64,000 nt of DNA, from NCBI GenBank assembly GCA_041557595.1, contig JBFFGE010000003.1, forward strand, positions 1,656-65,655. Reading direction: 5' to 3'. The position numbers and the translations under genes are program-made. Below are positions 4,954 to 60,440 of the stretch, one piece after another. The DNA comes from Alphaproteobacteria bacterium (GTDB lineage Bacteria; Pseudomonadota; Alphaproteobacteria; UBA8366). The notes below the pieces were generated by a model, which saw only the letters and a program-made list of their open reading frames with translations, was not told the origin of the DNA and did not search any database. The first letter of the stretch is position 1. Every line of letters begins with the position of its first letter.

Positions 4954-4997
4954 GCGCGGCGCCGGGTTCGGGATGCGAAACGGGTATCGAACGCGGC

Positions 4998-8368: not shown

Positions 8369-9067
8369 ATGCAGCAGACGATTGCGCTTGTCGATGACGA
8401 CAAGAACATTTTGACGTCCGTGTCGATGGCCCTCGAAGCGGAGGGCTATCACGTGCGGACCTACAACGACGGGGAAGAGGCGCTTCGCGGGCTGTCGCAA
8501 CAGCCTGTCGACCTTGCCATTCTCGACATTAAGATGCCGCGCATGGACGGCATGGAGCTGCTGCAGAAACTGCGCAGCGGCAGCAATTTGCCGGTCATCT
8601 TCCTGACCTCCAAGGACGATGAGGTCGATGAAGTGCTCGGCCTGCGCATGGGTGCGGACGACTATATCAAGAAGCCGTTTTCGCAACGGCTGCTGATCGA
8701 GCGGATCCGCACCTTGCTGCGCCGTTCAGAACTCGGCGACGAAACGCCGGTCAAGAAGGCGGATGCGGTGTTGGTGCGCGGTCCGCTGGTGCTCGACACC
8801 GAACGGCACTCGTGCTCGTGGGAAGGCCTGGATGTCCAGCTTACCGTAACGGAATTCCTGCTTCTCAAGGCGCTGGCGCAACGGCCCGGCCATGTCAAAA
8901 GCCGCGACCAGTTGATGGATGCGGCGTATGGCGAGAGCATCTACGTCGATGACCGCACCATCGACAGTCATATCAAGCGCCTTCGCAAGAAATTCCGTCA
9001 GGTGGACAACAGCTTTTCGCAAATCGAAACCTTGTACGGGGTGGGGTATCGTTACGGCGAGCAGTAA
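8369..9067 (+). CDS. chvI: OmpR-family response regulator ChvI
   Basis: ATG at 8369 follows CCAGGAG. Receiver domain (LVDDD...[14 protein letters not shown]) plus winged-helix domain. Lies next to chvG, hprK and pckA, as in other alphaproteobacteria. Confidence 0.9.
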
Positions 9068-9072
9068 CCGAT

Positions 9073-42815: not shown

Positions 42816-45587
42816 TTAGACGGACATCGCCATTTTCTCGATCCGCGCGGCGCAGTACTTGAATTCGGGGATCTTGCCGAAGGGGTCGACCTGCGGATTG
42901 GTCAGCATATTCGCCGGCGCTTCCGAAAAGCAGAATGGAATGAAGATCATGCCGTCCGCGACGTCGCGATCGGCGCGCGCCTTGAGCGTTATGGCGCCGC
43001 GCCGGGTGGCGACGGTAATCATGTCGCCGGCGGTAATGCCGAGCCGCGCCATTTCCCGGGGATTGAGGCCGGCGATCGCCTCCGGCTCCAGTTGGTCGAG
43101 AGTCGCCGCGCGGCGGGTCATCGATCCGGTATGCCAATGCTCCAGCAGGCGGCCCGTCGTCAGCACGAACGGGAAATCGTCGTCCGGCATTTCGTCCGGC
43201 GGCAGCAGGTCGGTGGGGACGATCTTGGCCCGGCCCGACACCGTGGGGAACGATTGCGCAAACATGATCTCGTTGCCCGGTTTGTCGGGCGCGTCGCAGG
43301 GATAGGTAACCGCGTCCTCGCGGAGCAGGCGGTCCCAGGTAATGTTGTTGAGCGAGGGCATGACCTCGGCCATTTCGGCGAAGACCTCCGATACCTGGGC
43401 GTAGGGCCAGTCCAATCCGATGCGCCGTGCGATCTCGGTAATCAGCTCCCAGTCCTGCCGCGCCTGTCCGGGCGGATCGATAACCGGGCGGGCGAGCTGT
43501 ACCTCGCGGTTGGTGTTGGTGAAGGTGCCCCATTTTTCCGCATGGGCGGACGCGGGCAGGATCACATCGGCATGCCAGGCGGTTTCGGTCAGGAAAATAT
43601 CCTGCACGACGAGGTGCTCCAGCGCGGCGAGCGCTTCGCGGGCGTGCTGCACATCGGGGTCGGACATGGCGGGGTTTTCGCCCAGAATATACATGCCCTT
43701 GATCTTGCCGTCGTTGATCGCATGCATGATCTCGACAACGGTCAGGCCTTTCACGGGATCGAGCGTCGTGCCCCAGAATTCCTCGAACCGGGCGCGGATG
43801 TCATCGTCTTCGACGGATTGATAGTCCGGAAAGACCATCGGGATCAGGCCGGCGTCGGACGCCCCTTGCACGTTGTTTTGACCGCGCAGCGGATGCAGGC
43901 CGGTGCCGGGGCGGCCGATTTGCCCGGTCGTTAAGGCGAGAGCGATCAGGCATCTGGCGTTGTCCGTGCCGTGCGTGTGTTGCGATATGCCCATGCCCCA
44001 GAAGATGATGGACCGTTCCGATTTGGCGTAGAGGCGCGCGATCTCGCGGATTTTGTCGGCCGGAATATCGCAGACCGCCTGCATGTCTTCGGGCGAAAAA
44101 TCGCGGACCTTTTCCTTGAGCGCTTCGAAACCTTCCGTATGCGCCTGGATGTACTGGATGTCGTACAGGTCTTCCTCGACGATGGTGTGGAGCATGGCGT
44201 TGAGAAGCGCCACGTCCCGGCCGGGCTTGAATTGCAGGATATGATCGGCATAGCGCGCGATGCCCTGGTTCTGGCCGCGCGGATCCATGACGACGAGTTG
44301 GGCGCCCCGGTCCGCGGCATTCTTGAGGAAGGTCGCGGCGACGGGATGATTTTCGGCCGGCCGCGCGCCGATAACGATGATGCAATCGGAATCCTTTGCC
44401 GCCGTAAACGGGGCCGTTACCGCGCCGGAGTTGAGGCCTTCCATCAACGCCGCGACGGAAGACGCATGGCACAGCCGGGTGCAATGATCGACATTGTTGG
44501 TCTCGAAGCCCTGCCGAATGAGTTTCTGGAACAGATAGGCTTCTTCGTTCGAACCTTTCGCGGAGCCGAATCCGGCGATCGCCTTGCCGCCGTCGCGATG
44601 ATGGATTTCCGTCAGGCCCGACGCGGCGAGGGCGAGCGCCTCTTCCCAGCTTGCCTCGCGGAACACTTGCGCCCAATCGCTCGCCTCGAGGCGCATGTTG
44701 GCGTCTTTGGCGACGCCCTCTTTGCGAATAAGCGGCGTCTTCAGTCGGTCGGGGTGATGAATGTAGTCGAAGCCGAAGCGCCCTTTGACGCAGAGCCGGT
44801 TCTCGTTCGCCGGTCCATCGCGGCCATCGACGTAGAGGATCTTGTTGTCCTTTACGTGCACCGTTGTCTGGCAACCGACACCGCAATACGGGCACAGCGT
44901 ATCGACACTCTTGTCTTCGAAGGCGATGCGTTTGCCGGATTTCTCGTCGATGAGGCTGCGTTCCATGAGCGCGCCGGTCGGACACGCCTGTACGCACTCG
45001 CCGCAGGCGACACAGGTGCTGTCGCCCATGCCTTCATCGAAGTCGAAGACGACCTTTGCCTGATGGCCGCGATACGCCATGCCGATGACGTCGTTCATCT
45101 GCACTTCGCGGCAGGCCCGGACGCACAGACCGCAATTGATGCAGGCGTCGAGGTTTACGGCGATCGCGGAATGGCTGTAGTCGGCGGCGGGTTTTCGGTC
45201 CGACGGGTAGCGGCTCGTAGGCTCGATCTCCATCGATGCGACCCAATCCCAAAACTTGGATTTCGGGTCGTGGCTTTCGGGCTGCTGCGGCTGATCGGCG
45301 AGCAGCAGTTCGAAAACCATCTTGCGCGCCTTTTTCGCCCGATCCGTCGCCGTTTTGACTTTCATTCCGGCGGAGACCTTGCGTTGGCACGACGCCGCCA
45401 GGACGCGCTCGCCCTCGACTTCGACCATGCAGGCGCGGCAATTGCCGTCGGCGCGGTATCCGGGCTCCGGTTGCCAGCAAAGATGCGGTATCGTTTCGCC
45501 CTGGCGTTGCGCCGCTTGCCAAATGGTCTCGTCCGGATCCGCTTCGACGTCGCGGCCGTTCAATTCAAATGTAATCTTTTTCTTCAT
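42816..45587 (-). CDS. fdsA: NAD-dependent formate dehydrogenase, molybdopterin catalytic alpha subunit (Cys type)
   Basis: 923 aa from MKKKITFELNG. N-terminal 2Fe-2S/4Fe-4S Cys clusters, molybdopterin domain with VDHCTRLCHASSV (Cys at the Sec/Cys position) and HPLRGQNNVQGA. No in-frame stop. Confidence 0.93.
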   Translation of the reverse strand: MKKKITFELNGRDVEADPDETIWQAAQRQGETIPHLCWQPEPGYRADGNCRACMVEVEGERVLAASCQRKVSAGMKVKTATDRAKKARKMVFELLLADQPQQPESHDPKSKFWDWVASMEIEPTSRYPSDRKPAADYSHSAIAVNLDACINCGLCVRACREVQMNDVIGMAYRGHQAKVVFDFDEGMGDSTCVACGECVQACPTGALMERSLIDEKSGKRIAFEDKSVDTLCPYCGVGCQTTVHVKDNKILYVDGRDGPANENRLCVKGRFGFDYIHHPDRLKTPLIRKEGVAKDANMRLEASDWAQVFREASWEEALALAASGLTEIHHRDGGKAIAGFGSAKGSNEEAYLFQKLIRQGFETNNVDHCTRLCHASSVAALMEGLNSGAVTAPFTAAKDSDCIIVIGARPAENHPVAATFLKNAADRGAQLVVMDPRGQNQGIARYADHILQFKPGRDVALLNAMLHTIVEEDLYDIQYIQAHTEGFEALKEKVRDFSPEDMQAVCDIPADKIREIARLYAKSERSIIFWGMGISQHTHGTDNARCLIALALTTGQIGRPGTGLHPLRGQNNVQGASDAGLIPMVFPDYQSVEDDDIRARFEEFWGTTLDPVKGLTVVEIMHAINDGKIKGMYILGENPAMSDPDVQHAREALAALEHLVVQDIFLTETAWHADVILPASAHAEKWGTFTNTNREVQLARPVIDPPGQARQDWELITEIARRIGLDWPYAQVSEVFAEMAEVMPSLNNITWDRLLREDAVTYPCDAPDKPGNEIMFAQSFPTVSGRAKIVPTDLLPPDEMPDDDFPFVLTTGRLLEHWHTGSMTRRAATLDQLEPEAIAGLNPREMARLGITAGDMITVATRRGAITLKARADRDVADGMIFIPFCFSEAPANMLTNPQVDPFGKIPEFKYCAARIEKMAMSV

Positions 45588-45637
45588 CTTGCGCTCCGCG
45601 CATTGCCGTCGACGGTCGGGAATTGGATGCAGCCATG

Positions 45638-47323
45638 TTATTTCAGGTCGTCCGGAAAGTATCGTAATGCGCTCAGGAGTGGGTTCGGGGCGGCTTGCCC
45701 CAAACCGCAAATCGACGCTTCGGCCATGACCTCGGCGAGGTCGCGAAGAAGTTCTTCGTCCCAATCCGGCCGGGTCATGAGCTGCACGGCTTTCGACGTT
45801 CCGTTGCGGCACGGCGTGCATTGTCCGCAGCTTTCATCCTCGAAGAAGCGCATGAGGTTGAGGGCGGCATCCCTGATGTTGTCCTGGTCGGACAGGAAGA
45901 CCACCGCGTGGCTGCCGACGAAGCAGCCGTGTTTTTCGAGCGTTCCGAAGTCCAGGGGAATGTTTGCCAAATCGGCGGGGAGAATGCCGCCGGAAGCCCC
46001 GCCGGGAAGATAGCCTTTAAGCGTATGACCGTCCGCCATGCCGCCGGAAGCGGCGAGAAGGTCTTCCGCGGTCGAACCCGCCGGCATCAGCTTGACGCCC
46101 GGCGTCTTCACGCGGCCCGAAACCGAATAGGTGCGCAATCCCTTCGCGCCATTCTTGCCCTGCGTCGCAAACCATTCGGCGCCGTTTTCGATGATCGCCG
46201 GGACCCAGTAAAGCGTCTCGACGTTGTTGACCAGGGTCGGCCGGTCGAAGACGCCGACCTGCGCAACATAGGGCGGTCGATGGCGGGGGAGGCCGCGCTT
46301 GCCCTCGATGCTCTCGATCATCGCGCTTTCTTCACCGCAGATGTAGGCGCCGGCGCCGCGTCGAAGATGGACTTTCGTGTGGTCGACCAGCCCCGCATTT
46401 TTGGCCGCCGAGATCTCGCATTTGAGGATCGCCAGGACGGCCGGGTATTCGTCGCGGATGTACAGGAAGACTTCCTCGGCCTCGACGGCCCAGGCGGCGA
46501 TCAGCATGCCTTCGAGAAATTTGTGCGGTTCGGTCTCCAGGAAATGGCGATCCTTGAAGGTTCCCGGCTCGCCCTCGTCTCCGTTGACGGCCATCAGGCG
46601 CGGACCCTCGGTGTCGCGCACCAGGCCCCACTTTCTGCCGGTCGGAAAGCCTGCCCCTCCCAGACCGCGCAGGCCGCCGTCCGAAAGGGTCGCAATGACG
46701 TCGTCGACGCTTCTCGCGCCATCGAGGCAACTCTCGAGAACGCCGTACCCGCCGCCCGCGCGGTAGGTTTCGTAGTCCTGATAGTGCGGCATCTCGGGAT
46801 GGACATCCCCCGCCGCCGCGAGGGTCTGTACGGTCTCAACGGTCGCATGGGGGACATGGCGATGTCCGATCTCGCAGACCGGCGCCTGATGGCAGGCCCC
46901 CATACAGGGTGCGCGAACCAAGCGAACGCCCGCCAAGTCGGCGGCCGCGAGGTCACGATGCAGTTCTTCGGCGCCGGCAAGTGCGCAGCTAAGACTGTCG
47001 CACACGCGCACCGTGGTCGGCGCCGGCCGCTCGGCGCCGTCGGGCACGACATCGAAATGCGCGTAAAACGTGGCGACTTCGTACACCTCCGCCATCGGGA
47101 TGCGCAGAAGTTCGGCGAGGCTGTGCAGATGCGATGCGGGCAAGCATTTTTCCGCATCCTGGATCAGGTGCAGATATTCGATCAACAACGCGCGTTCAAA
47201 GGGGCCGTCGCCGATCAGCGCACGGACGGAGTCGATTTCGGTCTCTTTGGCGACCCGGCCTTTCGGGTGGAGGAGCGCCTTACGTCGGCCCGCGCCGGGA
47301 TGTACTGAAGAGTCACCGGCCAT
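45638..47323 (-). CDS. fdsB: formate dehydrogenase diaphorase subunit, fused NuoE-like (FdsG) + NuoF-like (FdsB) domains
   Basis: 561 aa. The N-terminal roughly 150 aa are a thioredoxin-like 2Fe-2S module (CDSLSC...CMGAC). This is followed by the NuoF-type FMN/NAD module (GLRGLGGAGFPTGRKW, ESCGQCTPCR). Confidence 0.88.
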   Translation of the reverse strand: MAGDSSVHPGAGRRKALLHPKGRVAKETEIDSVRALIGDGPFERALLIEYLHLIQDAEKCLPASHLHSLAELLRIPMAEVYEVATFYAHFDVVPDGAERPAPTTVRVCDSLSCALAGAEELHRDLAAADLAGVRLVRAPCMGACHQAPVCEIGHRHVPHATVETVQTLAAAGDVHPEMPHYQDYETYRAGGGYGVLESCLDGARSVDDVIATLSDGGLRGLGGAGFPTGRKWGLVRDTEGPRLMAVNGDEGEPGTFKDRHFLETEPHKFLEGMLIAAWAVEAEEVFLYIRDEYPAVLAILKCEISAAKNAGLVDHTKVHLRRGAGAYICGEESAMIESIEGKRGLPRHRPPYVAQVGVFDRPTLVNNVETLYWVPAIIENGAEWFATQGKNGAKGLRTYSVSGRVKTPGVKLMPAGSTAEDLLAASGGMADGHTLKGYLPGGASGGILPADLANIPLDFGTLEKHGCFVGSHAVVFLSDQDNIRDAALNLMRFFEDESCGQCTPCRNGTSKAVQLMTRPDWDEELLRDLAEVMAEASICGLGQAAPNPLLSALRYFPDDLK

Positions 47324-47412
47324 GCTTGTTTGCCCCAGAATACCATTTCATATGCGCGAGCCATCTGCGCAGTGACGTCTACTGTCGAACGAACTTGTTG
47401 CTGACCCAGGTA

Positions 47413-47434
47413 GCATACGGATTTGGGTATACCA
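47413..47434. promoter_or_regulatory. operator-like motif, split variant GCATACGG-ATTTGG-GTATACCA, upstream of fdsB
   Basis: Same half-elements as the site at 47661-47676 with a 6-nt insertion. Lies 90-111 nt from the fdsB start. Confidence 0.45.
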
Positions 47435-47660
47435 TATGCCTAAATGACGCACCTGTCGACAGGCGCGGGTGTGTGCCGGGCGTGCACGGCGGATGCAAAA
47501 GGCCGGATGCCGCCGGCAAAACTTGCAACGTGCGGCGGTGTATCGTTCACAGGTCAGCTAAGCAAAATGTGACGGTTTAACAATCGCAAGGGTCGGCCTG
47601 AATCCATCTATGGTGGATAAAGCAGCGTCTAAAATCCGTCTTGCGACGGTCATCATATTT

Positions 47661-47676
47661 GCATACGGTATACCAA
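47661..47676. promoter_or_regulatory. operator-like motif GCATACGGTATACCAA upstream of tctC
   Basis: Matches GCATAC-N4-TACCAA. Related copies are at 51128-51143 and 60187-60202 (reverse orientation). Confidence 0.5.
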
Positions 47677-47842
47677 ACCCTCGCGGTTTCCGAAGTGACG
47701 CAGACATTGCCGCACCGGAAAAAGTCAACGGTTTGCCGACCTTCAAGCGAGGGATGGTTGAGCGATCGGTCGGAAGGCGCCGCAAGAGCAGCCGGATCGG
47801 TAACACGGCATAAACAAAACAAATTTCACGGAGGAAGCGTCA

Positions 47843-48838
47843 ATGCCTGTACGGAAGAAAGCTTCGTTGCTTGTTTTAGGACTCGGATCAACCGCAATGG
47901 TGATTATGGCCGGCGCGACTGCGGCGAACGCCGAATGGAAGCCGGCAAAGCCAATTGAGTTTGTCGTGATGGCCGGCAAGGGCGGCGGCGCCGACAAGGC
48001 CGTTCGGCTCATGCAATCCATCATCGCGAAAGAGAAATTAGGGCCGGTCGTCAATCCGGTGAACAAACCCGGCGGGACCGGCGCGGAAGCCCTCGTGTAT
48101 ATGAATCAAAAGAAGGGGGACGATCATACGATCATGTTCACCCTGAACAGCTTTTACACGACGCCGTTGAGGCAGCCGAATCTTGGGGTCGATATCGCAA
48201 CCTTCACCCCCGTTATGCGCATGGCGGAAGATACCTTCTGTTTGTGGGTCAATAAGGCCCGCAAGGATGGCCAGGAAATCAAGACCGTGCCGCAGTTCGT
48301 GAAAGCGGCCAAGGCTGCCGGCAGCAAATGGATCATGGCGGGCACGGGCAAGGCGTCCGAAGACAACCTGCTCACCGATTTCTTGAACACTGCATACGGT
48401 TTGAAGATGAAGTATGTGCCGTACAAGGGCGGTGGACGCGTCGCCAAGGAATTGGCCGGCAACAATGCGGATTCGACCGTCAACAACCCGTCCGAGCAAA
48501 TGGGCTTTTACGAGGCCGGCAAGACCCGTCCGATTGCTTGTTTCACGCCGGAGCGGATCGGTCTCTTCAAAGAGGCACCGACCTTTAAGGAACTCGGTCA
48601 GGACTTCGTCTACTACATGCAGCGGACCGTCGTGGGTGCGCCGGGCATGAGCGACGGCGCCAAGAAATACTATAAGGACCTTTTCACGAAGGTCTTCAAT
48701 TCCAAAGATTGGCAATCCTACCGAAACAAGAGAGCCCTTGTCGGCGAGGCGCTCACCGGCCCGGAGTTGGTGTCATATTGGAAGAAAGAGCGCGATATCC
48801 ATCGTGCAATGTTGAAGAAGATGGGCGCCATAAAGTAA
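47843..48838 (+). CDS. tctC: tripartite tricarboxylate transporter (TTT) substrate-binding protein, Bug/TctC family
   Basis: 331 aa with a signal peptide ending ANA-EW. Shows Bug-family patterns (PIEFVVMAGKGGGAD, YVPYKGGG). GGAGGA RBS. Confidence 0.88.
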   Translation: MPVRKKASLLVLGLGSTAMVIMAGATAANAEWKPAKPIEFVVMAGKGGGADKAVRLMQSIIAKEKLGPVVNPVNKPGGTGAEALVYMNQKKGDDHTIMFTLNSFYTTPLRQPNLGVDIATFTPVMRMAEDTFCLWVNKARKDGQEIKTVPQFVKAAKAAGSKWIMAGTGKASEDNLLTDFLNTAYGLKMKYVPYKGGGRVAKELAGNNADSTVNNPSEQMGFYEAGKTRPIACFTPERIGLFKEAPTFKELGQDFVYYMQRTVVGAPGMSDGAKKYYKDLFTKVFNSKDWQSYRNKRALVGEALTGPELVSYWKKERDIHRAMLKKMGAIK

Positions 48839-48898
48839 CGCCGGGACGATCGATTCCGGCGCGAGCCGAATTGTCCATGTGATTTGGAGGGGTGGGTC

Positions 48899-49414
48899 AT
48901 GACCGTGCGCAAAGCCGAGTTGTTCATGGCTCTGATCATGGCCTCCCTCTCCGGTTACCTCATGTGGAAGAGCGCCGAACTGCCGATCGGCTGGATTGCC
49001 GATGAAGGGCCTGGTGGCGGCGCCTGGCCTTTCTGGCTTGCCACGGTAATGTTGCTGAGTTGCGGCTGGATCCTTGTGAACTGGGTGCGGCGCACTTCCT
49101 GGCCCTCGAAATCGGAGGCGCCGTTTTTCGAATCCGGCGTATTGAAAGACGTCAGTGCCGTGGCGATCGCGCTGACGGTTACCATTGCGCTGTTCGACTA
49201 CATCGGCGCCTATCTTTCGCTGTTCTTCTTCATCGCGTTTTATGTCGGCGTTCTTGGGCGTCACCGATTGCTGACGACCGCGCTCTTCAGCGTGCTCACG
49301 CCGATCATCACCTTTTTCTTTTTCGAGATCGGGGTGAAAATTATTCTCCCGAAAGGTTTCACGGAACCGTTCTTCTTTCCGATCTTCAAGTTTTTTGGAA
49401 TGGGCGGGCTTTAG
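48899..49414 (+). CDS. tctB: TTT small membrane subunit, TctB family
   Basis: 171 aa with four TM segments. ATG lies 7 nt after GGAGGGG. Positioned between tctC and tctA. Confidence 0.8.
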   Translation: MTVRKAELFMALIMASLSGYLMWKSAELPIGWIADEGPGGGAWPFWLATVMLLSCGWILVNWVRRTSWPSKSEAPFFESGVLKDVSAVAIALTVTIALFDYIGAYLSLFFFIAFYVGVLGRHRLLTTALFSVLTPIITFFFFEIGVKIILPKGFTEPFFFPIFKFFGMGGL

Positions 49415-49520
49415 GGCGCGAAAAATCGCGCTGCCGTCCAGGAGGCATGTTCGCAAGCAAGAACAATGGTGCTCCGTCGGGCTTCGGGTGGAAACGAATA
49501 AGTAGGGACAAGAATTTTCC

Positions 49521-51074
49521 ATGGTCGAGACGCTTGGTTTCCTAATCGACGGATTTGCCGTGGCACTCCAGCCGATGAATCTCGCCCTGATTGTCTTCGG
49601 TTGCGCGGTCGGTTTGTTCATCGGTGCAATGCCCGGCCTCGGCTCCGTGAATGGCGTGGCAATACTTCTGCCTCTCACCTTTCTGGTACCGCCGACCGGC
49701 GCGATCATATTCCTGGCGGCCCTCTATTACGGCGCCATGTATGGCGGGGCGGTGTCGTCGATTATGCTGGGGATACCCGGCGCCTCCACCGCCGTTGCCA
49801 CCACGTTCGACGGCCGGCCGCTCGCGAAACAGGGATTGGCCGACAAGGCGCTGGTCGCGGCAGCCTTTGCCTCGTTCGTCGGCGGCACGATTTCCGTCGT
49901 CCTGTTTACGCTGGCCGCGCCGCCGCTGGCGCATATCGCGCTTGTCTTCGGATCGCCCGAGGAATTTGCGTTGATGATGCTGGCCTTCGCGACCTTCGTC
50001 GGCCTGGGCGGGGACGATATCGCCAAGACGCTGTTTTCGATCTGCATAGGGCTGGTGCTCGCCGCCATCGGCACGGACATCATGACCGGCGAGCCGCGGT
50101 TGATGCTGTTCGACTATCCCGGCTTCCTCAGCAAGATCAACTTTCTAATCCTCGCAATCGGTATTTACGGCATCGGCGAGATGCTGTGGACCATCGAAGA
50201 GCACCGGCGCAACGGCGGCAAGTCCATGCTGTCCGACGCCACCATCAGCCTCAAACGATCGCTCTCCCATCTGCGCGAGCTTCTCAAGACGTGGAAGACG
50301 ATGGTGATGGGATCCGTGCTCGGGTATTTCGTCGGCATTCTTCCCGCGGCCGGGGCGACCCCGGGTTCGCTGATGGCCTATGGGTTCGGGAAGCAGATTT
50401 CGAAAAATCCGGAAACCTTCGGCAAGGGCAACATCGAAGGCGTTGTCGCGCCGGAATCCGCAAACAACGCCGCATCGACCGGATCGATGCTTCCGATGCT
50501 GACGCTCGGCATTCCAGGATCACCGACGACGGCTATTCTGTTGGGCGGCATGGTCATCTGGGGGCTGGAACCGGGTCCCCGTCTCTTTACCGATCAAAAG
50601 GAATTCGTTTGGGGATTGATCGCATCGCTCTATGCGGCAAATCTGTTCGCACTGATCATCAACGTCGCCTTCATTCCCGCATTCATCGCCGTTCTGCGTT
50701 TGCCCTTTACGCTGCTTGCGCCGATCATTTTCGTGCTCTGTATCGTTGGCGGCTATGCGCCGACCCAGCGTTTGTTCGATGTCTGGCTGATGCTGATATT
50801 CGGCGTCGTCGGTTACCTCATGCGCAAGCTCGAATATCCGGTCGCACCGGCGGTCCTGGCGATCGTTCTGGGGCCTCTTGCGGAGCCGGCCCTTCGGCAA
50901 TCGCTGCTGATCAGCGGGGGCAGTTTTTCGATCTTCCTCGACATAGCCGAGCGGCCCTATGCCGCCGTGATTATGTACGTCGCGATCATCCTTCTCCTGC
51001 TGCCCCTCCTCGGACCGTTGAGACGATGGATGAAGGAACGCACTGACGAGAAGGTCACCGAGCGACGGGGTTAA
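49521..51074 (+). CDS. tctA: TTT large permease, TctA family
   Basis: 517 aa, polytopic, with TctA signatures (GAMPGLG, GIPGS repeated). Confidence 0.9.
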   Translation: MVETLGFLIDGFAVALQPMNLALIVFGCAVGLFIGAMPGLGSVNGVAILLPLTFLVPPTGAIIFLAALYYGAMYGGAVSSIMLGIPGASTAVATTFDGRPLAKQGLADKALVAAAFASFVGGTISVVLFTLAAPPLAHIALVFGSPEEFALMMLAFATFVGLGGDDIAKTLFSICIGLVLAAIGTDIMTGEPRLMLFDYPGFLSKINFLILAIGIYGIGEMLWTIEEHRRNGGKSMLSDATISLKRSLSHLRELLKTWKTMVMGSVLGYFVGILPAAGATPGSLMAYGFGKQISKNPETFGKGNIEGVVAPESANNAASTGSMLPMLTLGIPGSPTTAILLGGMVIWGLEPGPRLFTDQKEFVWGLIASLYAANLFALIINVAFIPAFIAVLRLPFTLLAPIIFVLCIVGGYAPTQRLFDVWLMLIFGVVGYLMRKLEYPVAPAVLAIVLGPLAEPALRQSLLISGGSFSIFLDIAERPYAAVIMYVAIILLLLPLLGPLRRWMKERTDEKVTERRG

Positions 51075-51127
51075 GCACATGGACGCCCTCTGTGGAAGGC
51101 GGCCGCAGTGTATGCAGGACCCCACAG

Positions 51128-51143
51128 TTGGTCTATTGTATGC
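51128..51143. promoter_or_regulatory. operator-like motif TTGGTCTATTGTATGC upstream of the first GntR gene
   Basis: Reverse complement GCATACAATAGACCAA has one deviation from GCATAC-N4-TACCAA. An extra GTATGC lies at 51110-51115. The site is 76-91 nt before ATG 51219. Confidence 0.45.
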
Positions 51144-51218
51144 CAAGTTAATGTCCATTCGAGGCGCCGACCGCGCGGCGCGCCGGCGGGTTCTTTCGAC
51201 AATTTGGAACGACGATTG

Positions 51219-51905
51219 ATGGCTATCGCTGAATTAAACATCGCACCGATCAAGGAAACGCCCAGCTTGAAAGCGCGCGCCTACCGGGCGATCAAATCCG
51301 CGATTCTGGAGATGAACATCTATGCCGACGAGACGGATCTGCGGCTGGACGAGCGCGGATTGTCGCAGCGGCTTGGAATCAGCAGAACGCCCATTCGCGA
51401 AGCCATATCCCAACTCGATCAGGAAGGGTTTGTCAGGATCGTGCCGCGGAAGGGCATCTACATCATCCGCAAGACCAAGGCGGAAATCCACGACATGATC
51501 ACCGTGTGGGCCGCCCTCGAGAGCATGGCGGCGCGGTTGATTTCCAAGGGCGCCGACGACGGAGACATCAAAAGACTGAGAGCGCTCGTCGATCAATTCT
51601 CGCAGGATGAAGTCGCCGCCAAGACCGGCGAATATTCGGATGCGAATATCGAATTTCACCAAGCGATCATTCGCATGAGCGGCTGTCCGCTGATCAGCGA
51701 GATTACCGACGGTCTGTTCTTTCACGTCCGCGCCATTCGTCATCGCTCGATTTTCAAACTGGACCGCGCGCGCAGATCGATCGTCGACCACAAGGAAATC
51801 GTTGCCGCGATCGAAGCGCGCGATACCGAGCGGGCCGAGCGGCTCGTTCGGGACCACACAATGAAGTTGCGCGATCACGTCGAGCAATATGTCGAACTCG
51901 ACTGA
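51219..51905 (+). CDS. GntR-family transcriptional regulator, FadR/FCD subfamily (paralogue 1)
   Basis: 228 aa from MAIAELN. Winged HTH (LSQRLGISRTPIREAISQLDQEGFV) plus an FCD-type helical domain. Confidence 0.88.
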   Translation: MAIAELNIAPIKETPSLKARAYRAIKSAILEMNIYADETDLRLDERGLSQRLGISRTPIREAISQLDQEGFVRIVPRKGIYIIRKTKAEIHDMITVWAALESMAARLISKGADDGDIKRLRALVDQFSQDEVAAKTGEYSDANIEFHQAIIRMSGCPLISEITDGLFFHVRAIRHRSIFKLDRARRSIVDHKEIVAAIEARDTERAERLVRDHTMKLRDHVEQYVELD

Positions 51906-52000
51906 CGCGGGACCGCCGGCATTCGGTTGCCTGCGCAAGTCGACGGCAAGTCGATGGTAAGGTGACGGTATTCAACGAACCGCCGTAGCACCGGTTCGCG

Positions 52001-53851: not shown

Positions 53852-53891
53852 CGGACCGTCTTGCCGATGCCGCTCGGCCGCGCGAGTGCGC

Positions 53892-56027
53892 CTACAGCAG
53901 GCCTGCGCCGCGCGCCCATCGGTACTTCGCACCCAGCACGTTGACCGGGAGCTCGGTCGTATAGGGGTAGGCGACAATGCCGCGCTCGTAGAGGTACTCC
54001 GACGCTTCCTCGACCTCGACATCGCCGACGAGCGACGCGACGACGGGTTTATCGATGCCCTTCTCGCGCGCATCCTCGACGACTTTGGCGGTCAGCTTCG
54101 CGAACACCATCGGCGGCGTCACGATCGTATGCCAGTATCCCAGGATCAGCGCATGGATCCGTTCGTCCTGCAATCCCAGTTTGATCGTGTTCGCATAAGT
54201 CTGCGGCGGCTCGCCGCCGGTGATGTCGACCGGGTTGCCGGCCGCGCCGAAGGGCGGAATGAATTTTCGGAATGCGGCGTCCAGATCTTTCGGCATGCGC
54301 ATCAATTTCAGGCCGTTATCGACACAGGAATCCGAGAGCAGGACACCCGAGCCGCCGGCGCCGGTGATGATCACCACGTTCTCGCCCTTCGGGGTGGGCA
54401 ATTTCGGAATCCCGCGGGCGAATTGCAGCATATCGTTCAAGGTTCGCGCGCGAATGACGCCCGATTGCTTGAGCACGTCTTCGTATATCTTGTCGTTGCC
54501 GGCCAACGCGCCGGTGTGCGACGCGGCGGCCCGCGCGCCCATCGACGTGCGGCCCGCCTTGAGGACGATGATCGGCTTGGACTTCGAGACGCGCTTCGCG
54601 ACCTCGGCGAAGGAACGACCGTCCTTTAGATCCTCGAGATGCATCGCCATGACTTCGGTATTCTTATCCTGCTCGAAATAGACGAGCAGGTCGTCTTCAT
54701 CCAGGTCGGATTTGTTGCCGAGACCGACAATGGCCGAGACCCCCATCTTGGTCGAGCGGCTGAAGCCGATGATCGACATGCCGACGCCGCCGCTCTGCGA
54801 CGACAGCGCGACCTTTCCCTTGACGTCGTATGGCGTACAGAACGTGGCGCACAGGTTCTGCGGGGTGTAGTAGAAGCCATAGATGTTGGGGCCCATGACG
54901 CGGACGTTGTATTTTCGGGCGACCGCGAGCATTTCGTCCTGCAGCGCCACTTCGCCGGTCTCCGCGAAGCCCGACGGGATCATGACCGCGCCGGGTATTT
55001 TCTTCTCGCCGACTTCCTTCAATGCGCCGGTCACGAAGGGCGCGGGAATGGCGAAGACGGCGACGTCGACCTTGCCGGCGATGTCCTTGACGCTCTTGTA
55101 GCATTTGTAGCCGAGGACCTTGTCCGCCTTCGGATTGATCGGATAGATGTTGCCCTTGTAACCGCCATTGATCAGGTTCTTCATCACCGAATTGCCGATC
55201 TTGCCGTCTTCCGCGGATGCGCCGATCACGGCGACGGCTTTCGGATTCATGATCCGTTTCATCGCCGTCAGAATGTCTTCCTGCGACGGCCGGAACGGCG
55301 CTTGCTGCGGTTTCAGGTCGATCAGGATGCGCACATCGACGGCGGTCGCGCCTTTCTTGCGGACGAAGACCGGGTTGAGGTCGAGTTCGCCGATTTCCGG
55401 AAAATCGGATACCAGCTTCGAGACGTTCTTGATCAGCGTCGCCAGCGCCTTGCGGTCGACCGGATCGGCACCGCGGACGCCCTTGAGCATTTCGGCGCCC
55501 TCGATGCCGTCGAGCATGGACAGCGCATCGCGCTGGGTCGCAGGTGCGAGTCGGAAGGTAATGTCTTTCATCACTTCCACGAGGATACCGCCGAGACCGA
55601 AAGCGACCAGCTTGCCGAAACTGGGATCGGTCACCGCGCCGATAAGAACTTCCTGCGCGCCGTCCGGCGACAACATTTTCTGGACCTGCACGCCGTCGAT
55701 GCGCGCCTTCTTGTCGTATTTGCGCCCGTTGGCGACGATTGTCGCGAAGGCTTTCCTGGCCTCGCCGACGCTGGAGACGCCGACCACGACGCCGCCCGCA
55801 TCGGTCTTGTGAAGGATGTCTTCCGAGACGATTTTCATCACGACCGGGAAGCCGATCCGCTTGGCGAGGGCGGCCGCCTTGTCGGCGGTCGCGGCGATGC
55901 CGTCGCGCGGCAGAGGAATTTCGTAGGCCGAACAAATCTTCTTGCATTCGGCGGCCGACAGCGCGGACCGGCCCGCTTTCAGTGCCTTATCGAGGACGGT
56001 GCGAACCGCCTTTTTGTTGAAAGCCAT
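53892..56027 (-). CDS. ADP-forming acyl-CoA synthetase (NDP-forming, acetate--CoA ligase family), domain order ATP-grasp then CoA-binding/ligase-CoA
   Basis: 711 aa from MAFNKK. The N-terminal ATP-grasp subdomain (GFPVVMKIVSEDILHKTDAGGV) comes first. It is followed by a CoA-binding Rossmann domain (VAVIGAS...GNIYPINP) and the phosphohistidine loop AASHTGALAG. Confidence 0.85.
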   Translation of the reverse strand: MAFNKKAVRTVLDKALKAGRSALSAAECKKICSAYEIPLPRDGIAATADKAAALAKRIGFPVVMKIVSEDILHKTDAGGVVVGVSSVGEARKAFATIVANGRKYDKKARIDGVQVQKMLSPDGAQEVLIGAVTDPSFGKLVAFGLGGILVEVMKDITFRLAPATQRDALSMLDGIEGAEMLKGVRGADPVDRKALATLIKNVSKLVSDFPEIGELDLNPVFVRKKGATAVDVRILIDLKPQQAPFRPSQEDILTAMKRIMNPKAVAVIGASAEDGKIGNSVMKNLINGGYKGNIYPINPKADKVLGYKCYKSVKDIAGKVDVAVFAIPAPFVTGALKEVGEKKIPGAVMIPSGFAETGEVALQDEMLAVARKYNVRVMGPNIYGFYYTPQNLCATFCTPYDVKGKVALSSQSGGVGMSIIGFSRSTKMGVSAIVGLGNKSDLDEDDLLVYFEQDKNTEVMAMHLEDLKDGRSFAEVAKRVSKSKPIIVLKAGRTSMGARAAASHTGALAGNDKIYEDVLKQSGVIRARTLNDMLQFARGIPKLPTPKGENVVIITGAGGSGVLLSDSCVDNGLKLMRMPKDLDAAFRKFIPPFGAAGNPVDITGGEPPQTYANTIKLGLQDERIHALILGYWHTIVTPPMVFAKLTAKVVEDAREKGIDKPVVASLVGDVEVEEASEYLYERGIVAYPYTTELPVNVLGAKYRWARGAGLL

Positions 56028-56201
56028 GTGCCTTCTCCCTGAGGTGAATTTATTTTTAGAAAAAATTGCCGCGCGTCCGGCGCACCTCATTTCTTGGTGC
56101 GTCGGAGAGGCCGGGCATTCGTTCGTGTGAACTCGCGATGATCTTATTTCGGGCGCTAGACGACGCCTGTAACAAAGAGACCGGTCTTGAAACAATTCTC
56201 G

Positions 56202-57464
56202 TTATGCAATTTCGCCCACGGCACCCGATTTGACGACGTCTTCGAATTCCTCACCCGAATACCCGAGAACTTCCTTCAAGATTTCGACCGTGTGTTCGCC
56301 GAGCAGCGGCGACCGCTTGACGTCCGCCGGACTGTCGGAAAGCTTTACCGGGCAACCGACCGTAAGATAGGGTCCGCGCTCCGGATGATCGACTTCCACG
56401 ATCGTGCCGGTTTTGCGCAGCGACGGCTCCTCGGCCAGTTCCTTCATTGAAAGGATCGGGCCGCACGGAATATCGAGCGGATTGCAGGCATCCATCACCT
56501 CGAATTTGGTCTTGGTCTTGGTCCATTCCTCGATGCGGTCGAAAATTTGTGGAATCTTGTCGAGGCGGGCATCGGGTTTCGCAAATCCCGGATCGTCCTT
56601 CCAGTCGGGCTGTCCGATCAGGTCGCAGATATTACCCCAGACCGCGGCCTGGGTGATGAAGTAGACATAGGCATTCGGATCGGATTCCCAGCCCTTGCAT
56701 TTGAGGATCCAGCCCGGCTGACCGCCGCCCGAATCGTTGCCCGCACGCGGCGTTGCGTCGCCGAACGGGATGCCCTGGCCGTGCTGGCTGTATTCCGTCA
56801 GCGGCCCGCGTTCGAGACGCTGCTGGTCGCGCAGTTTGACGCGGCATAAATTCAGGACGCCGTCCTGCATGGATGCGAGAACTTTCTGTCCGCGCCCGGT
56901 TTGTTCGCGTTGAAACAGTGCGGTGACGATCCCCAGCGCAAGATGGAGCCCCGTGCCGCTGTCGCCGATTTGGGCGCCGGTGACCGTCGGCGGACCGTCG
57001 AGGAAACCGGTGGTCGACGCGGAGCCGCCCGTACACTGGGCCACATTCTCATAGACCTTGCAGTCTTCATACGGGCCGGGGCCGAATCCCTTGATCGACG
57101 CCAGGATCATGCGCGGGTTCAACTCCTGAACCCGCTCCCAACCGAACCCCATGCGATCCAATGCGCCGGGCGCGAAGTTTTCGACCATGACATCGCAGGT
57201 CTTGATCAACCTTTCGAGGACCGCCTTGCCTGTCTCGTTCTTGGTGTTGAGCTCGATGGAGCGCTTGTTGTGATTCAGCATGGTGAAGTAGAGCGAATCC
57301 GCCCCCGGCACATCGACGAGCTGCTTGCGCGTAGCATCGCCGACGCCGGGCCGTTCGACCTTGATCACGTCCGCGCCGAACCAGGCAAGAAGTTGCGTGC
57401 ATGTCGGGCCGGATTGCACATGGGTGAAATCGAGAATTTTTATGCCTTCAAGCGCCTTACCCAT
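56202..57464 (-). CDS. frc: formyl-CoA:oxalate CoA-transferase (family III CoA-transferase)
   Basis: 420 aa from [37 protein letters not shown]. Adjacent to oxc. Confidence 0.9.
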
Positions 57465-57532
57465 CGGGGTCTCCTTATTGCGTATGCGGACAGGGCGGCG
57501 CAACGCCGCCGCCCTGTCTCATCTGTCGCGCG

Positions 57533-59281
57533 TTATTTGTACATCGTTTGGCGTTTGGTGCCCGGCGCGTATTCGTTGGGATCGATCCAGACATTGACGA
57601 CGGCACATTTGCCCGTCTTGGCGATGGCTTCGCGGGCGCGTTGAAGCGCCGGTTGAATCTGGTCGGCTTCGCGGACCTCTTCGCCGTAGCCGCCGATCAT
57701 CTCGCCGAACTTCGAGAATTCGACGTCGCCGAGCTTGTTGCCGATGTCGCCGCGATTGGGGCCGTATTTGGCGAGCTGACCGTACCGGATCTGGTTCATC
57801 GCCGAATTGTTGCCGACGACGGCCAGGTAGGGCGCGCCGAAGCGTTGCGCCGTTTCCATATCGAACGACGTCATGCCGAACGAACCGTCGCCATAGAGGC
57901 ACATGACCTCTTTCCCCGGATGCGCGAGTTTGGCGGCCATCGAGAAACCGGTTCCGACGCCCAGCGACCCGAGGGCGCCCGGGTCCATCCACTGTCCCGG
58001 GTTCCGCGGCCGTACGGCTTGTGCCGAAATCGTGACGATGTCGCCGCCATCGCCGATATAGATGGTGTCCTCGCCAAGGAACTCGTTGATTTCCCAGGCA
58101 AGGCGATAGGGATGAATCGGACTGCTGTCGGACAGGAACAGGGGCATCAGTTTGTCGAGCTTGCTCGCTTCGATGCCGCGCAGCTGTTCCATCCATTCTT
58201 GCCGCTTCTTGCGGGCGCCCTTTTCGATCCGCCCGCTCGCCGCTTGGGCAACCGCGGTCAGAATTGCGCCGGGATCGCCGACAAGGCCAAGGCTGATATC
58301 GCGGTTCTTGCCGACGGTGCGGTAGTCCATGTCGATCTGGACGAGCGTTGCGGCCTTGGAAATGCGCTTGCCGTAGCCCATGCGGAAGTCGAACGGGGTG
58401 CCGACGATAAGAATGACGTCGGCATCCTTGAACGCATCGGACCGTGTGCGGTCGAAATGGTGCGGGTCGTCCTGCGGAAGCATTCCCCGGCTGGCGCCAT
58501 TCATGTACGCCGGAATGTCCAGTGCCCGAATGAATGCGATCGCCTCGTTATGGCCTTGCGATGCCCAGACCTGTTGCCCGAACAAGACTGCCGGGCGTTC
58601 CGATTTCACCAGAATGTCGGCGAGGCGTTCGATGTCTGCGGGATCGCCGATCGATTTCGTCGATGCCCGATACTGCCCGGCTTGCGGCAGGACGGCCTGG
58701 TCGATCGGGATTTCCGCGTCGAGAATGTCGCGCGGAATTTCGAGATAGGACGGACCGTACGCGCCGGCGAAACATTCCCGGGCGGCCATCGAGATCATGT
58801 CGGCGACACGGTTGGTGGAGAACACGCCCGACGCGAATTTGGTGATCGGCGTCATCATGTCGACATGCGGCAGATCCTGCAGCGAACCCTGCTTGTGTTG
58901 GGTGAGCGAGCTTTGTCCGCCGATATGCAGGATCGGGCTCTCCGAGCGAAACGCCGTGGCGACGCCGGTGACCGCGTTGGTGCAGCCGGGGCCGGCGGTC
59001 GTGACAACACAGCCGAGCTTGCCGGTCTGGCGGGCGTACCCGTCGGCCGCATGTGCCGCGGTTTGCTCGTGCCGGACGTCAACGATCCGGATGCCCTCGT
59101 CGATGCAGCCGTCGTAGATGTCGATGATATGGCCACCGCAGAGCGTGAATACCGTATCGACCCCTTCGGCTTTGAGGGCCTTGGCGACAAGGCCGCCGCC
59201 CGAGATCGTAGATCCGTCCTTGGTTTTTTGCGCTAGCGTATCGTCTGCGGTTGCGGACCGGGCGGTTGCGGGTGTCGCCAT
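57533..59281 (-). CDS. oxc: oxalyl-CoA decarboxylase (ThDP-dependent)
   Basis: 582 aa with ThDP motif GDGSFGM...NNSAMN. N-terminal pyrimidine-binding domain with HEQTAAHAADGYAR. Confidence 0.9.
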   Translation of the reverse strand: MATPATARSATADDTLAQKTKDGSTISGGGLVAKALKAEGVDTVFTLCGGHIIDIYDGCIDEGIRIVDVRHEQTAAHAADGYARQTGKLGCVVTTAGPGCTNAVTGVATAFRSESPILHIGGQSSLTQHKQGSLQDLPHVDMMTPITKFASGVFSTNRVADMISMAARECFAGAYGPSYLEIPRDILDAEIPIDQAVLPQAGQYRASTKSIGDPADIERLADILVKSERPAVLFGQQVWASQGHNEAIAFIRALDIPAYMNGASRGMLPQDDPHHFDRTRSDAFKDADVILIVGTPFDFRMGYGKRISKAATLVQIDMDYRTVGKNRDISLGLVGDPGAILTAVAQAASGRIEKGARKKRQEWMEQLRGIEASKLDKLMPLFLSDSSPIHPYRLAWEINEFLGEDTIYIGDGGDIVTISAQAVRPRNPGQWMDPGALGSLGVGTGFSMAAKLAHPGKEVMCLYGDGSFGMTSFDMETAQRFGAPYLAVVGNNSAMNQIRYGQLAKYGPNRGDIGNKLGDVEFSKFGEMIGGYGEEVREADQIQPALQRAREAIAKTGKCAVVNVWIDPNEYAPGTKRQTMYK

Positions 59282-59423
59282 TTTTCAAACCCTTCCTAAA
59301 TGGTCAAGTTGGTGCTGTCGGCGGAAATAGGTTCCGACTTGGATTTGGTTTCTTCTGTTTTCCGTAATGCCGTGGGCATCTTGTTCTTTCGTCGCTTAAA
59401 AGGGGCGATGATACGGTGTCGTT

Positions 59424-60113
59424 TCAATCCAGATAGTGGGCGTTCTCGTCGACATGCGCCGCGAGCCCGAGCGTGTGCTCTCGCACCAGCCGTTCCGCGA
59501 GGTCGGCGTCTCGTTGCTCCAGCGCTTCGATAATGTTCATGTGATCGATAATGGACCGGCTCGCGCGATCGTTTTCGGAAATCGTCCGCATGCGGATCCA
59601 TCGCATGTGGGCGAGAAGATTCTCTGCCATCTGATTGAGCAACGCGCAGTCGCTCATGCTCAGGATCGCTTGGTGAAATTGAATGTTGGTCTCGGAATAT
59701 TCGTCGATTTCGGCCTGCACCCGGTCGTCGTCGAAGGTCGCGAACATCTTGCGCAGCGTGGCGATTTCCCGGTCCGTCGCGCGCAGCGTGATGAGGCGCG
59801 CCGCCATGCCTTCCAGCGCGGCCCATACGGTGATCATCTCGAGAATCGCCTGCTTGGTCTTGCGGACGACGAAGGCGCCCCGGCGCGGTATGACCTTGAC
59901 GAAGCCCTCCTGCTCCAACCGGGAGATGGCTTCCCGCACCGGCGTCCGGCTTACGCCGAATTCCTCGGACAGCATGCGCTCGTCGAGGCGCGGTTCCTCG
60001 GTTTGGGCGTAGATGTTCATGGAGGTGATCGCGCGTTTCAGGCCGTCATAGACCTTGTCCTTGAGGACAAAATTCGCCTCGATCGGTTCGATGACCAGCT
60101 TTGCCGTCGCCAT
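59424..60113 (-). CDS. GntR-family transcriptional regulator, FadR/FCD subfamily (paralogue 2)
   Basis: 229 aa. Aligns along its whole length with the 51219-51905 product (roughly half the positions identical by eye, e.g. RLDER.LS...G.SRTP.REAIS.L.QEGFV, ITVWAALE.MAARLI). Confidence 0.88.
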   Translation of the reverse strand: MATAKLVIEPIEANFVLKDKVYDGLKRAITSMNIYAQTEEPRLDERMLSEEFGVSRTPVREAISRLEQEGFVKVIPRRGAFVVRKTKQAILEMITVWAALEGMAARLITLRATDREIATLRKMFATFDDDRVQAEIDEYSETNIQFHQAILSMSDCALLNQMAENLLAHMRWIRMRTISENDRASRSIIDHMNIIEALEQRDADLAERLVREHTLGLAAHVDENAHYLD

Positions 60114-60186
60114 GGTTTGTCCCAGGTTTTTGCGCGGTTGCCGTCGTCCCCTGACTCCGAATCCCCGACGGCCGCGAAAGTAGTAT

Positions 60187-60202
60187 TTGGTATTTTGTAT
60201 GC
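60187..60202. promoter_or_regulatory. operator-like motif TTGGTATTTTGTATGC in the GntR2 / OYE divergent region
   Basis: Reverse complement GCATACAAAATACCAA matches GCATAC-N4-TACCAA exactly. It is followed by CATATGCGATTTGG, which recurs near 47418-47440. Confidence 0.5.
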
Positions 60203-60440
60203 CATATGCGATTTGGACGCAACATCAATCTGGGCACTGTTGGGTGGCCATCGACCGACCCGTGAGTGACGGCGATCCGGGTTGAAATATCGACGGAATT
60301 CCGCGTGGATCGATGTAATTTTCGTCCGCTGAGAGGGTGTCCGACTTTCCGCCGTTGCGGTTATTCGCCGGGATCGGCGTATACTTCGTCCCATCGCGCA
60401 CGGCGCTGTCGCGAGCATAAGAATAGAGAGAAGATTTGAG

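Follow-up and report, generated by a model that had tools for sequence, protein, structure and literature searches.

GntR-family regulators that combine a winged helix-turn-helix (wHTH) with an FCD effector domain provide the closest described systems to the one presented here. UxuR of Escherichia coli recognizes the box AAATTGGTATACCAATTT, and in an engineered sensor promoter a UxuR site was placed between the -35 and -10 elements (PMC8092373). The consensus published for the FadR subfamily is NyGTM-N0-1-KACNy (PMC4494728). NanR of E. coli loads three dimers onto its (GGTATA)3 operator, with cooperative binding on closely spaced repeats (PMC8012715; PMC4494728). In Rhodobacter sphaeroides, the GntR regulator AkgR regulates sucCDAB, which it activates, and sdh, with the motif GTGATCAC-N13-GTGATCAC (PMC4323418). 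In the literature searched, we found no description of any regulator of the oxalate pathway (oxc/frc) in Alphaproteobacteria, of a GntR/FCD regulator of the oxalate pathway, or of the box reported below. Here we examine a stretch of 64,000 nucleotides (the window) from an alphaproteobacterial assembly (GCA_041557595.1, contig JBFFGE010000003.1, positions 1,656 to 65,655), which carries an oxalate/formate gene cluster and two paralogous genes for FCD-type GntR regulators, gntR1 and gntR2. A preliminary description of this DNA had pointed to a recurrent motif, GCATAC-N4-TACCAA, in four promoter regions of the cluster and had proposed that it marks the operators of one or both regulators.

Our analysis indicates that the motif is a fragment of a longer palindrome occupying four sites, A to D, which probably are operators of the cluster-encoded GntR1 and GntR2. 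From the position of the sites relative to predicted promoter elements, we consider it probable, with somewhat less assurance, that binding represses by occluding the promoter.

A palindromic box at four promoter regions of the window

The recognition element is an imperfect 19-bp palindrome, TTGGYATA-N3-TATRCCAA. Counts anchored on the box show that it is made up of TGG/CCA triplets recurring every 7 bp. In related loci the full form spans 24 bp, TGG-N4-TGG-TATA-CCA-N4-CCA, and is found upstream of gntR1 orthologs most commonly as cTGG-TGTA-TGG-TATA-CCA-GAAA-CCA (24 bp); many other sites hold three of the four triplets. When the window was searched for TTGGCATA-N3-TATGCCAA with up to three mismatches, exactly four sites were returned (47424, 47658, 51128, 60187), versus 0.045 expected. 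A position weight matrix (PWM) built from other genomes only ranked the same four sites at the top, with 21-28 bits. The best match away from the four promoter regions reached 11.1 bits, and the 95th percentile of shuffle maxima was 17.2; the only other scores above 11.1, of 12.5-18.6 bits, belong to 7-bp-shifted overlaps of sites A-C. The four operators are as follows.

47658..47676 (TTTGCATACGGTATACCAA), plus strand: candidate operator A, upstream of tctC; 2 mismatches, 23.9 bits
47418..47442 in extended form, 19-bp palindrome 47424-47442 (TGGGTATACCATATGCCTA), minus strand: candidate operator B, upstream of fdsB; 3 mismatches, 21.0 bits
60187..60211 in extended form, 19-bp palindrome 60187-60205 (TTGGTATTTTGTATGCCAT), minus strand: candidate operator C, upstream of gntR2; 3 mismatches, 27.9 bits, the top score
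51128..51146 (TTGGTCTATTGTATGCCAA), plus strand: candidate operator D, upstream of gntR1; 2 mismatches, 22.1 bits

Operator A lies 167 bp upstream of the tctC start (47843) and reads TTG-CATA-CGG-TATA-CCA in triplets on the plus strand; operator B lies 101 bp upstream of the fdsB start (47323) and reads CGG-ATTT-GGG-TATA-CCA-TATG-CCT on the plus strand. The other two sites are placed for autoregulation. Operator D (plus strand TGG-TCTA-TTG-TATG-CCA) is 73 bp upstream of the gntR1 start (51219), and operator C (minus strand TCG-CATA-TGG-CATA-CAA-AATA-CCA) precedes the gntR2 start (60113) by 74 bp and the start of the divergent gene OYE by 236 bp; in the closest relative, L086, the site reads TGGTATACAAAATACCA (L numbers are our labels for related loci and contigs). 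The preliminary description had assigned this last site to the divergent region shared by gntR2 and OYE. The autoregulatory position holds, but OYE is not supported as a target: no OYE homolog was found by tblastn in the 80 GntR1-type loci described below, and no OYE-type (PF00724) gene was called next to gntR2 in the GntR2-type loci for which gene calls were returned. On this evidence, site C is better read as the gntR2 operator than as an OYE site.

The strings on which the preliminary description was built are all real and all intergenic by the open reading frame (ORF) and domain map: GCATACGGTATACCAA at 47661-47676 upstream of tctC, GCATACAAAATACCAA as the reverse complement of 60187-60202, GCATACAATAGACCAA as the reverse complement of 51128-51143 with GTATGC at 51110-51115, GCATACGGATTTGGGTATACCA at 47413-47434, GTAT(A/G)CCATATGC at 47427-47439 and 60197-60209, and ATACCATTTCATATGC at 47340-47355. 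Its claim that GCATAC-N4-TACCAA exceeds chance is likewise borne out, as GCATACNNNNTACCAA gives 3 matches at up to one mismatch versus 0.02 expected, and 0 of 100 shuffles reach 3. What does not survive is the division into a motif with accessory boxes; the motif is the 19-bp palindrome, of 24 bp in its full form. One extended operator, 47418-47442, accounts for the CGGATTTGG copy at 47418, the supposed split version (47413-47434) and the "second shared box" GTAT(A/G)CCATATGC. The proposed second motif, GGATTTGG or CG(G)ATTTGG, occurs 5 times versus 3.2 expected and is thus at chance level; so is its copy upstream of the gene then called oxc, at 59341-59348, and the 142-bp gap between gntR2 and that gene holds no box, nor does the corresponding gap in the nine GntR2-type relatives. 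The box suspected next to the fdsB start, ATACCATTTCATATGC at 47340-47355, scored too low to be listed by the PWM scan (threshold 4 bits), and none of 27 orthologous fdsB upstream regions contains a counterpart; at most, it represents a lone minus-strand TGGTAT half-site.

The 10-bp consensus core of the box in relatives is TGGTATACCA, and the window sites carry it with 1-2 mismatches, as CGGTATACCA, GGGTATACCA and, twice, TTGTATGCCA. A weight matrix iterated on all loci drifted to this core and lost specificity, and we used the fixed 19-bp pattern and anchored counts instead. Scanning the earlier pattern over the 80 loci yielded variants such as GCATACCATATGCCAA, or TTGGCATACCATATGCCAA with flanks. 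Owing to their imperfect arms, the boxes went undetected by an inverted-repeat finder. Sites C and D, both autoregulatory, have GGCATACAA-N-A-N-ACCAA in common (cf. 51110-51145), and sites A and B have GGTATACC in common; the two pairs may represent two operator subclasses, with n=2 sites each.

The box keeps its position in related loci

Two sets of related loci were compared. A profile search with one genome per species gave 80 GntR1-type loci, mostly from metagenome-assembled genomes of Hyphomicrobiaceae, whose GntR1 orthologs are 65-76% identical. An exact-protein look-up gave nine GntR2-type loci (L081-L089), with GntR2 orthologs 74-91% identical. Synteny is kept in the GntR1-type loci, with fdsA-fdsB, the tct operon, and gntR followed by oxc and frc. 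The usual GntR2-type order is fdsAB <> tctCBA-gntR2-oxc-frc, sometimes with acs or a sucCD-like gene added. The window is unusual in having both paralogs and in the inversion of its gntR2-ThDP-frc-acs block, in which ThDP stands for the gene of a thiamine diphosphate (ThDP) enzyme. Two loci, L071 and L050, have a typical Hyphomicrobiaceae-type cluster in assemblies labelled Leptospira interrogans and Bacteroidota, probably through contamination or mis-binning.

In the 1.5 Mb covered by the 89 loci, there are 98 matches to the 19-bp pattern at up to three mismatches, versus 2.0 in shuffles. Matches inside oxc (TCGGCATGGGCTATGCCAT, 12 loci) were removed, being conserved coding sequence of canonical Oxc and not operators. 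The remaining non-coding matches form three clusters. The divergent region between tctA and gntR holds 45, about 19 lie roughly 100 bp ahead of fdsB, and the third group precedes tctC, at 165-190 bp where tctC and gntR lie on the same strand. The box occurs within 400 bp upstream of gntR1 in 79 of the 80 GntR1-type loci, and upstream of gntR2 in all nine GntR2-type loci (5' edge at 50-104 bp), so that 88 of 89 loci have it before their own gntR gene. With the core at no more than one mismatch, the count upstream of gntR1 is 74 of 80. An unbiased 8-mer enrichment arrived at ATACCATA, present in 70 of 80 gntR1 upstream regions but in just 21 of the 3488 background chunks. The sequence on either side of the box is not conserved.

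The individual window sites have their counterparts. For operator B, 12 of 16 matching loci have a box 82-126 bp ahead of fdsB. Operator A has counterparts 165-192 bp ahead of tctC in relatives that share the gene order (L056, L078, L032, L081, L082, L086), and where GntR2-type loci include the tctC upstream region the box is there, its 5' edge at 164-201 bp in L081, L082 and L086 and at 65 and 269 bp in L089. For operator D, the 19-mer lies 77-105 bp upstream of gntR1 in nine orthologs (L001, L054, L056, L058, L068, L071, L073, L074, L079).

GntR1 and GntR2

Both proteins consist of an N-terminal GntR winged helix (PF00392) and a C-terminal FCD domain (PF07729), and they are 53% identical to each other. 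Neither paralog clade shows any variation at R46, S55-R56-T57-P58, R60 and P76-R77-G79 of the wHTH and wing, which correspond to the DNA contacts in the FadR-DNA structures. Because the DNA-reading residues are identical, both paralogs probably read the same boxes, and for the same reason the boxes of GntR1 are not separable by sequence from those of GntR2. In TM0439, an FCD protein of solved structure, certain histidines presumably serve as metal ligands. H147, H191 and H213 of the FCD domain here, invariant in 15 sequences, align with these histidines (PDB 3sxy/3fms), which suggests that the effector would be a metal-bound carboxylate or acyl-CoA. Scores of both proteins against the NCBIfam models of UxuR, ExuR, LldR, PdhR, NanR and related regulators are all far below the cutoffs; by this measure GntR1 and GntR2 are orthologs of none of these regulators and form a distinct, unnamed FCD clade.

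Promoter geometry

A putative fdsB promoter on the minus strand (47431..47459) consists of a -35 element TCGACA (47459-47454), a 17-nt spacer and a -10 element TATGGT (47436-47431). The promoter scanner gave it a 9/12 consensus match, and its -10 lies within operator B. Ahead of fdsB, the window and at least 10 orthologous loci have TCGACA 17-18 nt before TATGGT, and gntR1 orthologs have a conserved cTTG 26 nt before the box core. In 64 of 69 sites, the asymmetric central triplet is TGG when read in the direction of the closest gene downstream, for which the simplest explanation is that TA-TGG-T doubles as a -10 element. By eye, a candidate tctC promoter can be read as TTGCGA (47641-47646), 17 nt and TACGGT (47664-47669). 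The fdsB promoter was the only one that the scanner found; the ones proposed for sites A, C and D come from visual inspection and are weak. A 20-bp palindrome, CGCACCTGTCGACAGGCGCG, at 47448-47467 is centred on the putative fdsB -35 (TCGACA), and "cTCGACAgg" shows partial conservation among orthologs; the palindrome may serve a second regulator, or be no more than the -35 element.

In the mechanism that we propose, the box would lie downstream of the -35 element and its asymmetric centre would supply a -10-like hexamer (TATGGT, TACGGT or TATTGT). Since this hexamer is embedded in the box, the -10/start region would be blocked by a bound dimer, or by a pair of dimers on the 24-bp form, which would result in repression. 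Binding of a small pathway carboxylate or acyl-CoA at the metal-containing FCD domain would release the repressor, candidate effectors being oxalate, formate, oxalyl-CoA and formyl-CoA. The predicted regulon of the window would then comprise fdsBA; tctCBA; gntR1, autoregulated and possibly accompanied by the gene of a P-loop protein; and gntR2-ThDP-frc-acs, also autoregulated.

Genes of the cluster

The genes around the four sites are listed by position.

42816-45821, minus strand: fdsA, molybdopterin alpha subunit of NAD-linked formate dehydrogenase
45638-47323, minus strand: fdsB, NuoE/NuoF-fusion subunit of NAD-linked formate dehydrogenase, with NuoF/NuoE-like domains
42816..47323, minus strand: target operon fdsB-fdsA; NCBIfam TIGR01591, 748 bits versus a cutoff of 666
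47843-48838, plus strand: tctC (Pfam TctC)
48884-49414, plus strand: tctB (Pfam TctB)
49521-51074, plus strand: tctA (Pfam TctA)
47843..51074, plus strand: target operon tctC-tctB-tctA, a tripartite tricarboxylate-type transporter (TTT) and candidate oxalate uptake system
51219-51905, plus strand: gntR1, GntR-family regulator with FCD effector domain, 228 aa
52001-53851, plus strand: P-loop protein of 616 aa with a Walker-A-like GASAAGKST motif, directly 3' of gntR1
53892-56027, minus strand: acs, fused ADP-forming acyl-CoA synthetase
56202-57503, minus strand: frc, formyl-CoA transferase
57533-59281, minus strand: ThDP enzyme, earlier called "oxc"
59424-60113, minus strand: gntR2, GntR/FCD regulator of 229 aa, paralog of GntR1
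60441-61565, plus strand: OYE, PF00724-type

gntR2 is the probable first gene of an operon gntR2-ThDP-frc-acs (53892..60113, minus strand). In their longest ORFs, fdsA and fdsB share 184 bp (45638-45821), and the true fdsA start is probably further downstream than that of its longest ORF. The P-loop protein had no match in Pfam, NCBIfam or PDB. A homolog, 52% identical, is encoded in L056 (4383-6206) between two boxes, upstream of fdsB, and the gene may be a member of the regulon. A plasmid similarity search of 47000-52000 gave no match.

While frc of the window is canonical (TIGR03253, 711.7 bits versus a cutoff of 504), the gene that the preliminary description had labelled oxc does not encode canonical oxalyl-CoA decarboxylase: it scores 212.6 bits with TIGR03254, whose cutoff is 739, and its product is 24.5% identical to canonical Oxc. 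Its best matches, PRK05858 (442 bits) and 2-hydroxyacyl-CoA lyase (358 bits), are both under cutoff. Neither a canonical oxc nor a further homolog was found in the 64-kb window. Most relatives carry canonical Oxc where the window has the ThDP enzyme, with oxc-frc following gntR as an operon; the gene after gntR scores 988 bits in L012 and 1006 bits in L081 against the same cutoff of 739. The window-like ThDP type follows gntR in L047, L056, L076, L077, L078, L086 and L087.

The oxalate link is also visible in the OxlT-type oxalate/formate antiporter encoded in some related loci. In L034, its canonical gene (8239-9756, minus strand; 586 bits versus a cutoff of 335) stands next to gntR1 (10001-10684) in divergent orientation. 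It lies about 245 bp from the gntR1 start, at the place that the divergent tct operon takes in other loci. The sole box of L034 is about 1.1 kb beyond the 3' end of the antiporter gene and about 190 bp upstream of a TerC-like membrane gene (7344-8114, plus strand). TerC-like genes also flank the fdsB boxes of L143, L159 and L169. SucCD-like CoA ligase genes stand directly behind a box in L021 (4101-6158), L033 (3974-6063), L047 (18603-19487) and L077 (17410-18291). In L089 the SucCD-like gene (4314-6358) adjoins the fds genes, and the window has instead the fused ADP-forming acyl-CoA synthetase in the gntR2 operon. These genes are a hint of ATP recovery from a CoA thioester of the pathway.

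The box beyond the oxalate/formate cluster

To learn whether the box is scattered, we scanned metagenome contigs for exact TTGGYATACCATATRCCAA, which gave at least 121 sites. The matches listed are distributed as follows.

Oxalate-cluster context (fdsB, tct, gntR, TerC, cluster-type sucC): 30 among the matches listed
Between mdh and canonical sucC, about 57 bp ahead of the latter: 31 among the matches listed
Next to unrelated FCD regulator genes (26-34% identity): 6 among the matches listed
Unclassified: 54 among the matches listed, 21 of them near contig ends

All assignable sites, 67 among the at least 121 listed, are in promoter regions, which argues against random scatter as far as these sites are concerned; the 54 unclassified ones stand apart. 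Among the matches listed, the element upstream of canonical sucC is TTGGTATATGGTATGCCAA (e.g. L160 4246-4264, L154 2155-2173, L129 6076-6094), preceded on the 31 contigs by a conserved GGTTGCAG with a TTGCAG -35. No gntR was found near these sucC boxes within the fetched DNA. The six FCD-regulator sites with the exact 19-mer (L139 633-651, L123 3100-3118, L092 3603-3621, L132, L146, L164) belong to regulators 26-34% identical to GntR1/2, and since such unrelated FCD genes carry the same 19-mer, the association of the box with FCD regulators does not depend on the cluster.

As judged by these contigs, the box is not private to the oxalate/formate regulon. Either relatives of GntR1/2 also control sucCD, or several FCD paralogs have one specificity in common. 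The data suggest that some Alphaproteobacteria control succinyl-CoA synthetase by a GntR-type regulator in a way not described before and different from that of AkgR; AkgR itself was ruled out as the regulator of the sucC sites, its motif being different. The earlier proposal of FCD-type GntR operators defining a single regulon is strongly backed by the comparison of genomes, but not as regards exclusivity, given the same 19-mer at sucC and at other FCD genes. Taken as a whole, and as far as such comparisons reach, the earlier interpretation appears largely right, if imprecise.

Alternative explanations

Several observations weigh against our assignment of sites A-D to GntR1/GntR2 acting as repressors. 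The window sites are degenerate, with 2-3 mismatches each. Sites C and D have no convincing -35, and the promoters read there by eye are poor; the centre of site C is not directed toward gntR2; and site A is 167 bp from the tctC start, with a promoter read by eye that the scanner did not pass. The sucC boxes with no gntR nearby mean that another regulator of the same specificity may exist, which could bind sites A-D too. Some FCD regulators activate, as AkgR does (PMC4323418). The whole case rests on sequence.

The sucC boxes lead directly to an alternative in which all the boxes are bound by an unlinked regulator of the same family that also controls sucCD, and GntR1 and GntR2 recognize another site or are minor. 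It would account for the identical 19-mer in the mdh-sucC promoter of 31 contigs, among the matches listed, with no gntR within the fetched DNA, and for the boxes at SucCD-like genes in some oxalate clusters. However, a box at a fixed distance upstream of gntR in 88 of 89 loci is a classic signature of autoregulation, and independent FCD regulators have the box beside their own genes; we regard this alternative as improbable. About equally improbable is that the regulators act from these sites as activators, or in both senses. The example of AkgR on sucCDAB (PMC4323418), and the distance of 167 bp between site A and the tctC start codon, would be in keeping with activation, but at fdsB, as at gntR orthologs, the boxes overlap the -10 that is predicted, a geometry typical of repression.

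That the box is mainly a promoter, an extended -10 or a site for an alternative sigma factor, rather than a repressor operator, seems to us more improbable still. The strict orientation of the centre toward the downstream gene (64 of 69 sites) and a -10-like TATGGT hexamer that is correctly spaced from a conserved -35 are what a promoter would produce. A promoter has no need, on the other hand, of the symmetric arms TTGG...CCAA that are kept on both sides of the -10; the 10-bp core is a known GntR box; and GntR2-type sites keep the arms while the centre varies. As to chance similarity, remnants of small mobile repeats or hairpins in a 5'-leader RNA, only the short palindromic nature of the box speaks for them, and they are effectively refuted by the excess of four sites over the 0.045 expected and by the recurrence at orthologous positions in 89 loci with diverged flanks. 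Rfam returned nothing relevant over 47000-61000, and with the predicted -10 inside the box most of it would not be transcribed.

A more elaborate form of the operator reading is conceivable, and we hold it to be rather unlikely. In it, the 24-bp element would be a composite operator of four half-sites spaced by 7 bp, with two dimers or a mixed GntR1/GntR2 tetramer on overlapping 17-bp palindromes and the -10 at the centre; the paralogs would integrate two signals, and the same class of regulator would also gate succinyl-CoA synthetase (sucCD) across Alphaproteobacteria. If so, turnover of oxalate/formyl-CoA would be coupled to substrate-level phosphorylation, and a TTT-family transporter would be assigned to oxalate uptake.

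Implications and comparison with known regulators

The simpler reading, with sites A-D as operators of GntR1 and GntR2, yields a candidate operator and two candidate repressors. The predicted regulon includes formate dehydrogenase, the TTT transporter, frc, the ThDP enzyme and NDP-forming CoA ligases, and the proposed promoter-occlusion mechanism, which is testable, holds for about 90 Hyphomicrobiaceae-type loci. It also leads to functional predictions, namely that TctCBA is an oxalate importer and that the non-canonical ThDP enzyme stands in for Oxc. A promoter/repressor pair responsive to oxalate or formate would be usable for biosensors.

The mode of action predicted here from the DNA and protein sequences can be likened to that of UxuR/ExuR, FadR or LldR-type repressors. 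With UxuR/ExuR, GntR1 and GntR2 have in common the GntR wHTH and FCD domains, an operator core (TTGGTATACCAA for UxuR) identical to the consensus core TGGTATACCA of the relatives, and, as a prediction, an effector bound at a metal in the FCD domain. They differ in that UxuR/ExuR serve hexuronates whereas the genes here form an oxalate/formate cluster, and in that the palindrome here is longer (TGG-N11-CCA, 17-19 bp), with extra triplets at 7-bp spacing and a -10 hexamer at its centre. The published FadR-subfamily consensus agrees in the GT-AT-AC core, but here a G, not a pyrimidine, precedes GT. E. coli FadR itself is a dimeric wHTH protein on an inverted repeat TGGT...ACCA that is released by acyl-CoA, and the residues equivalent to its DNA contacts are kept; it has, however, the FadR_C variant in place of the FCD domain with its histidine triad, and its operator spacing and regulon differ.

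NanR is a GntR repressor of the FCD type; among NCBIfam models, that of NanR ranks second for both GntR1 and GntR2, and the heptad TGGTATA(W) is the unit repeated in the box. NanR has three direct repeats, whereas those here are inverted (TGG-TGG / CCA-CCA) with a 7-bp period, and the regulon differs. At 75-78 bits against a cutoff of 260, and with inverted heptads, GntR1 and GntR2 fall outside the NanR type. AkgR resembles the present case as an alphaproteobacterial GntR regulator at a sucC promoter, with tctA and fdh in its predicted extended regulon in some species (PMC4323418). It differs in its motif, GTGATCAC-N13-GTGATCAC, to which the box at sucC here, TTGGTATATGGTATGCCAA, does not conform, and in acting by activation. 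Set beside these systems, the -10 within the operator, the 7-bp-phased half-sites, the two paralogs on one box and the box at sucC promoters are mildly unusual; the regulon is a conventional GntR regulon, useful to the specialist rather than surprising.

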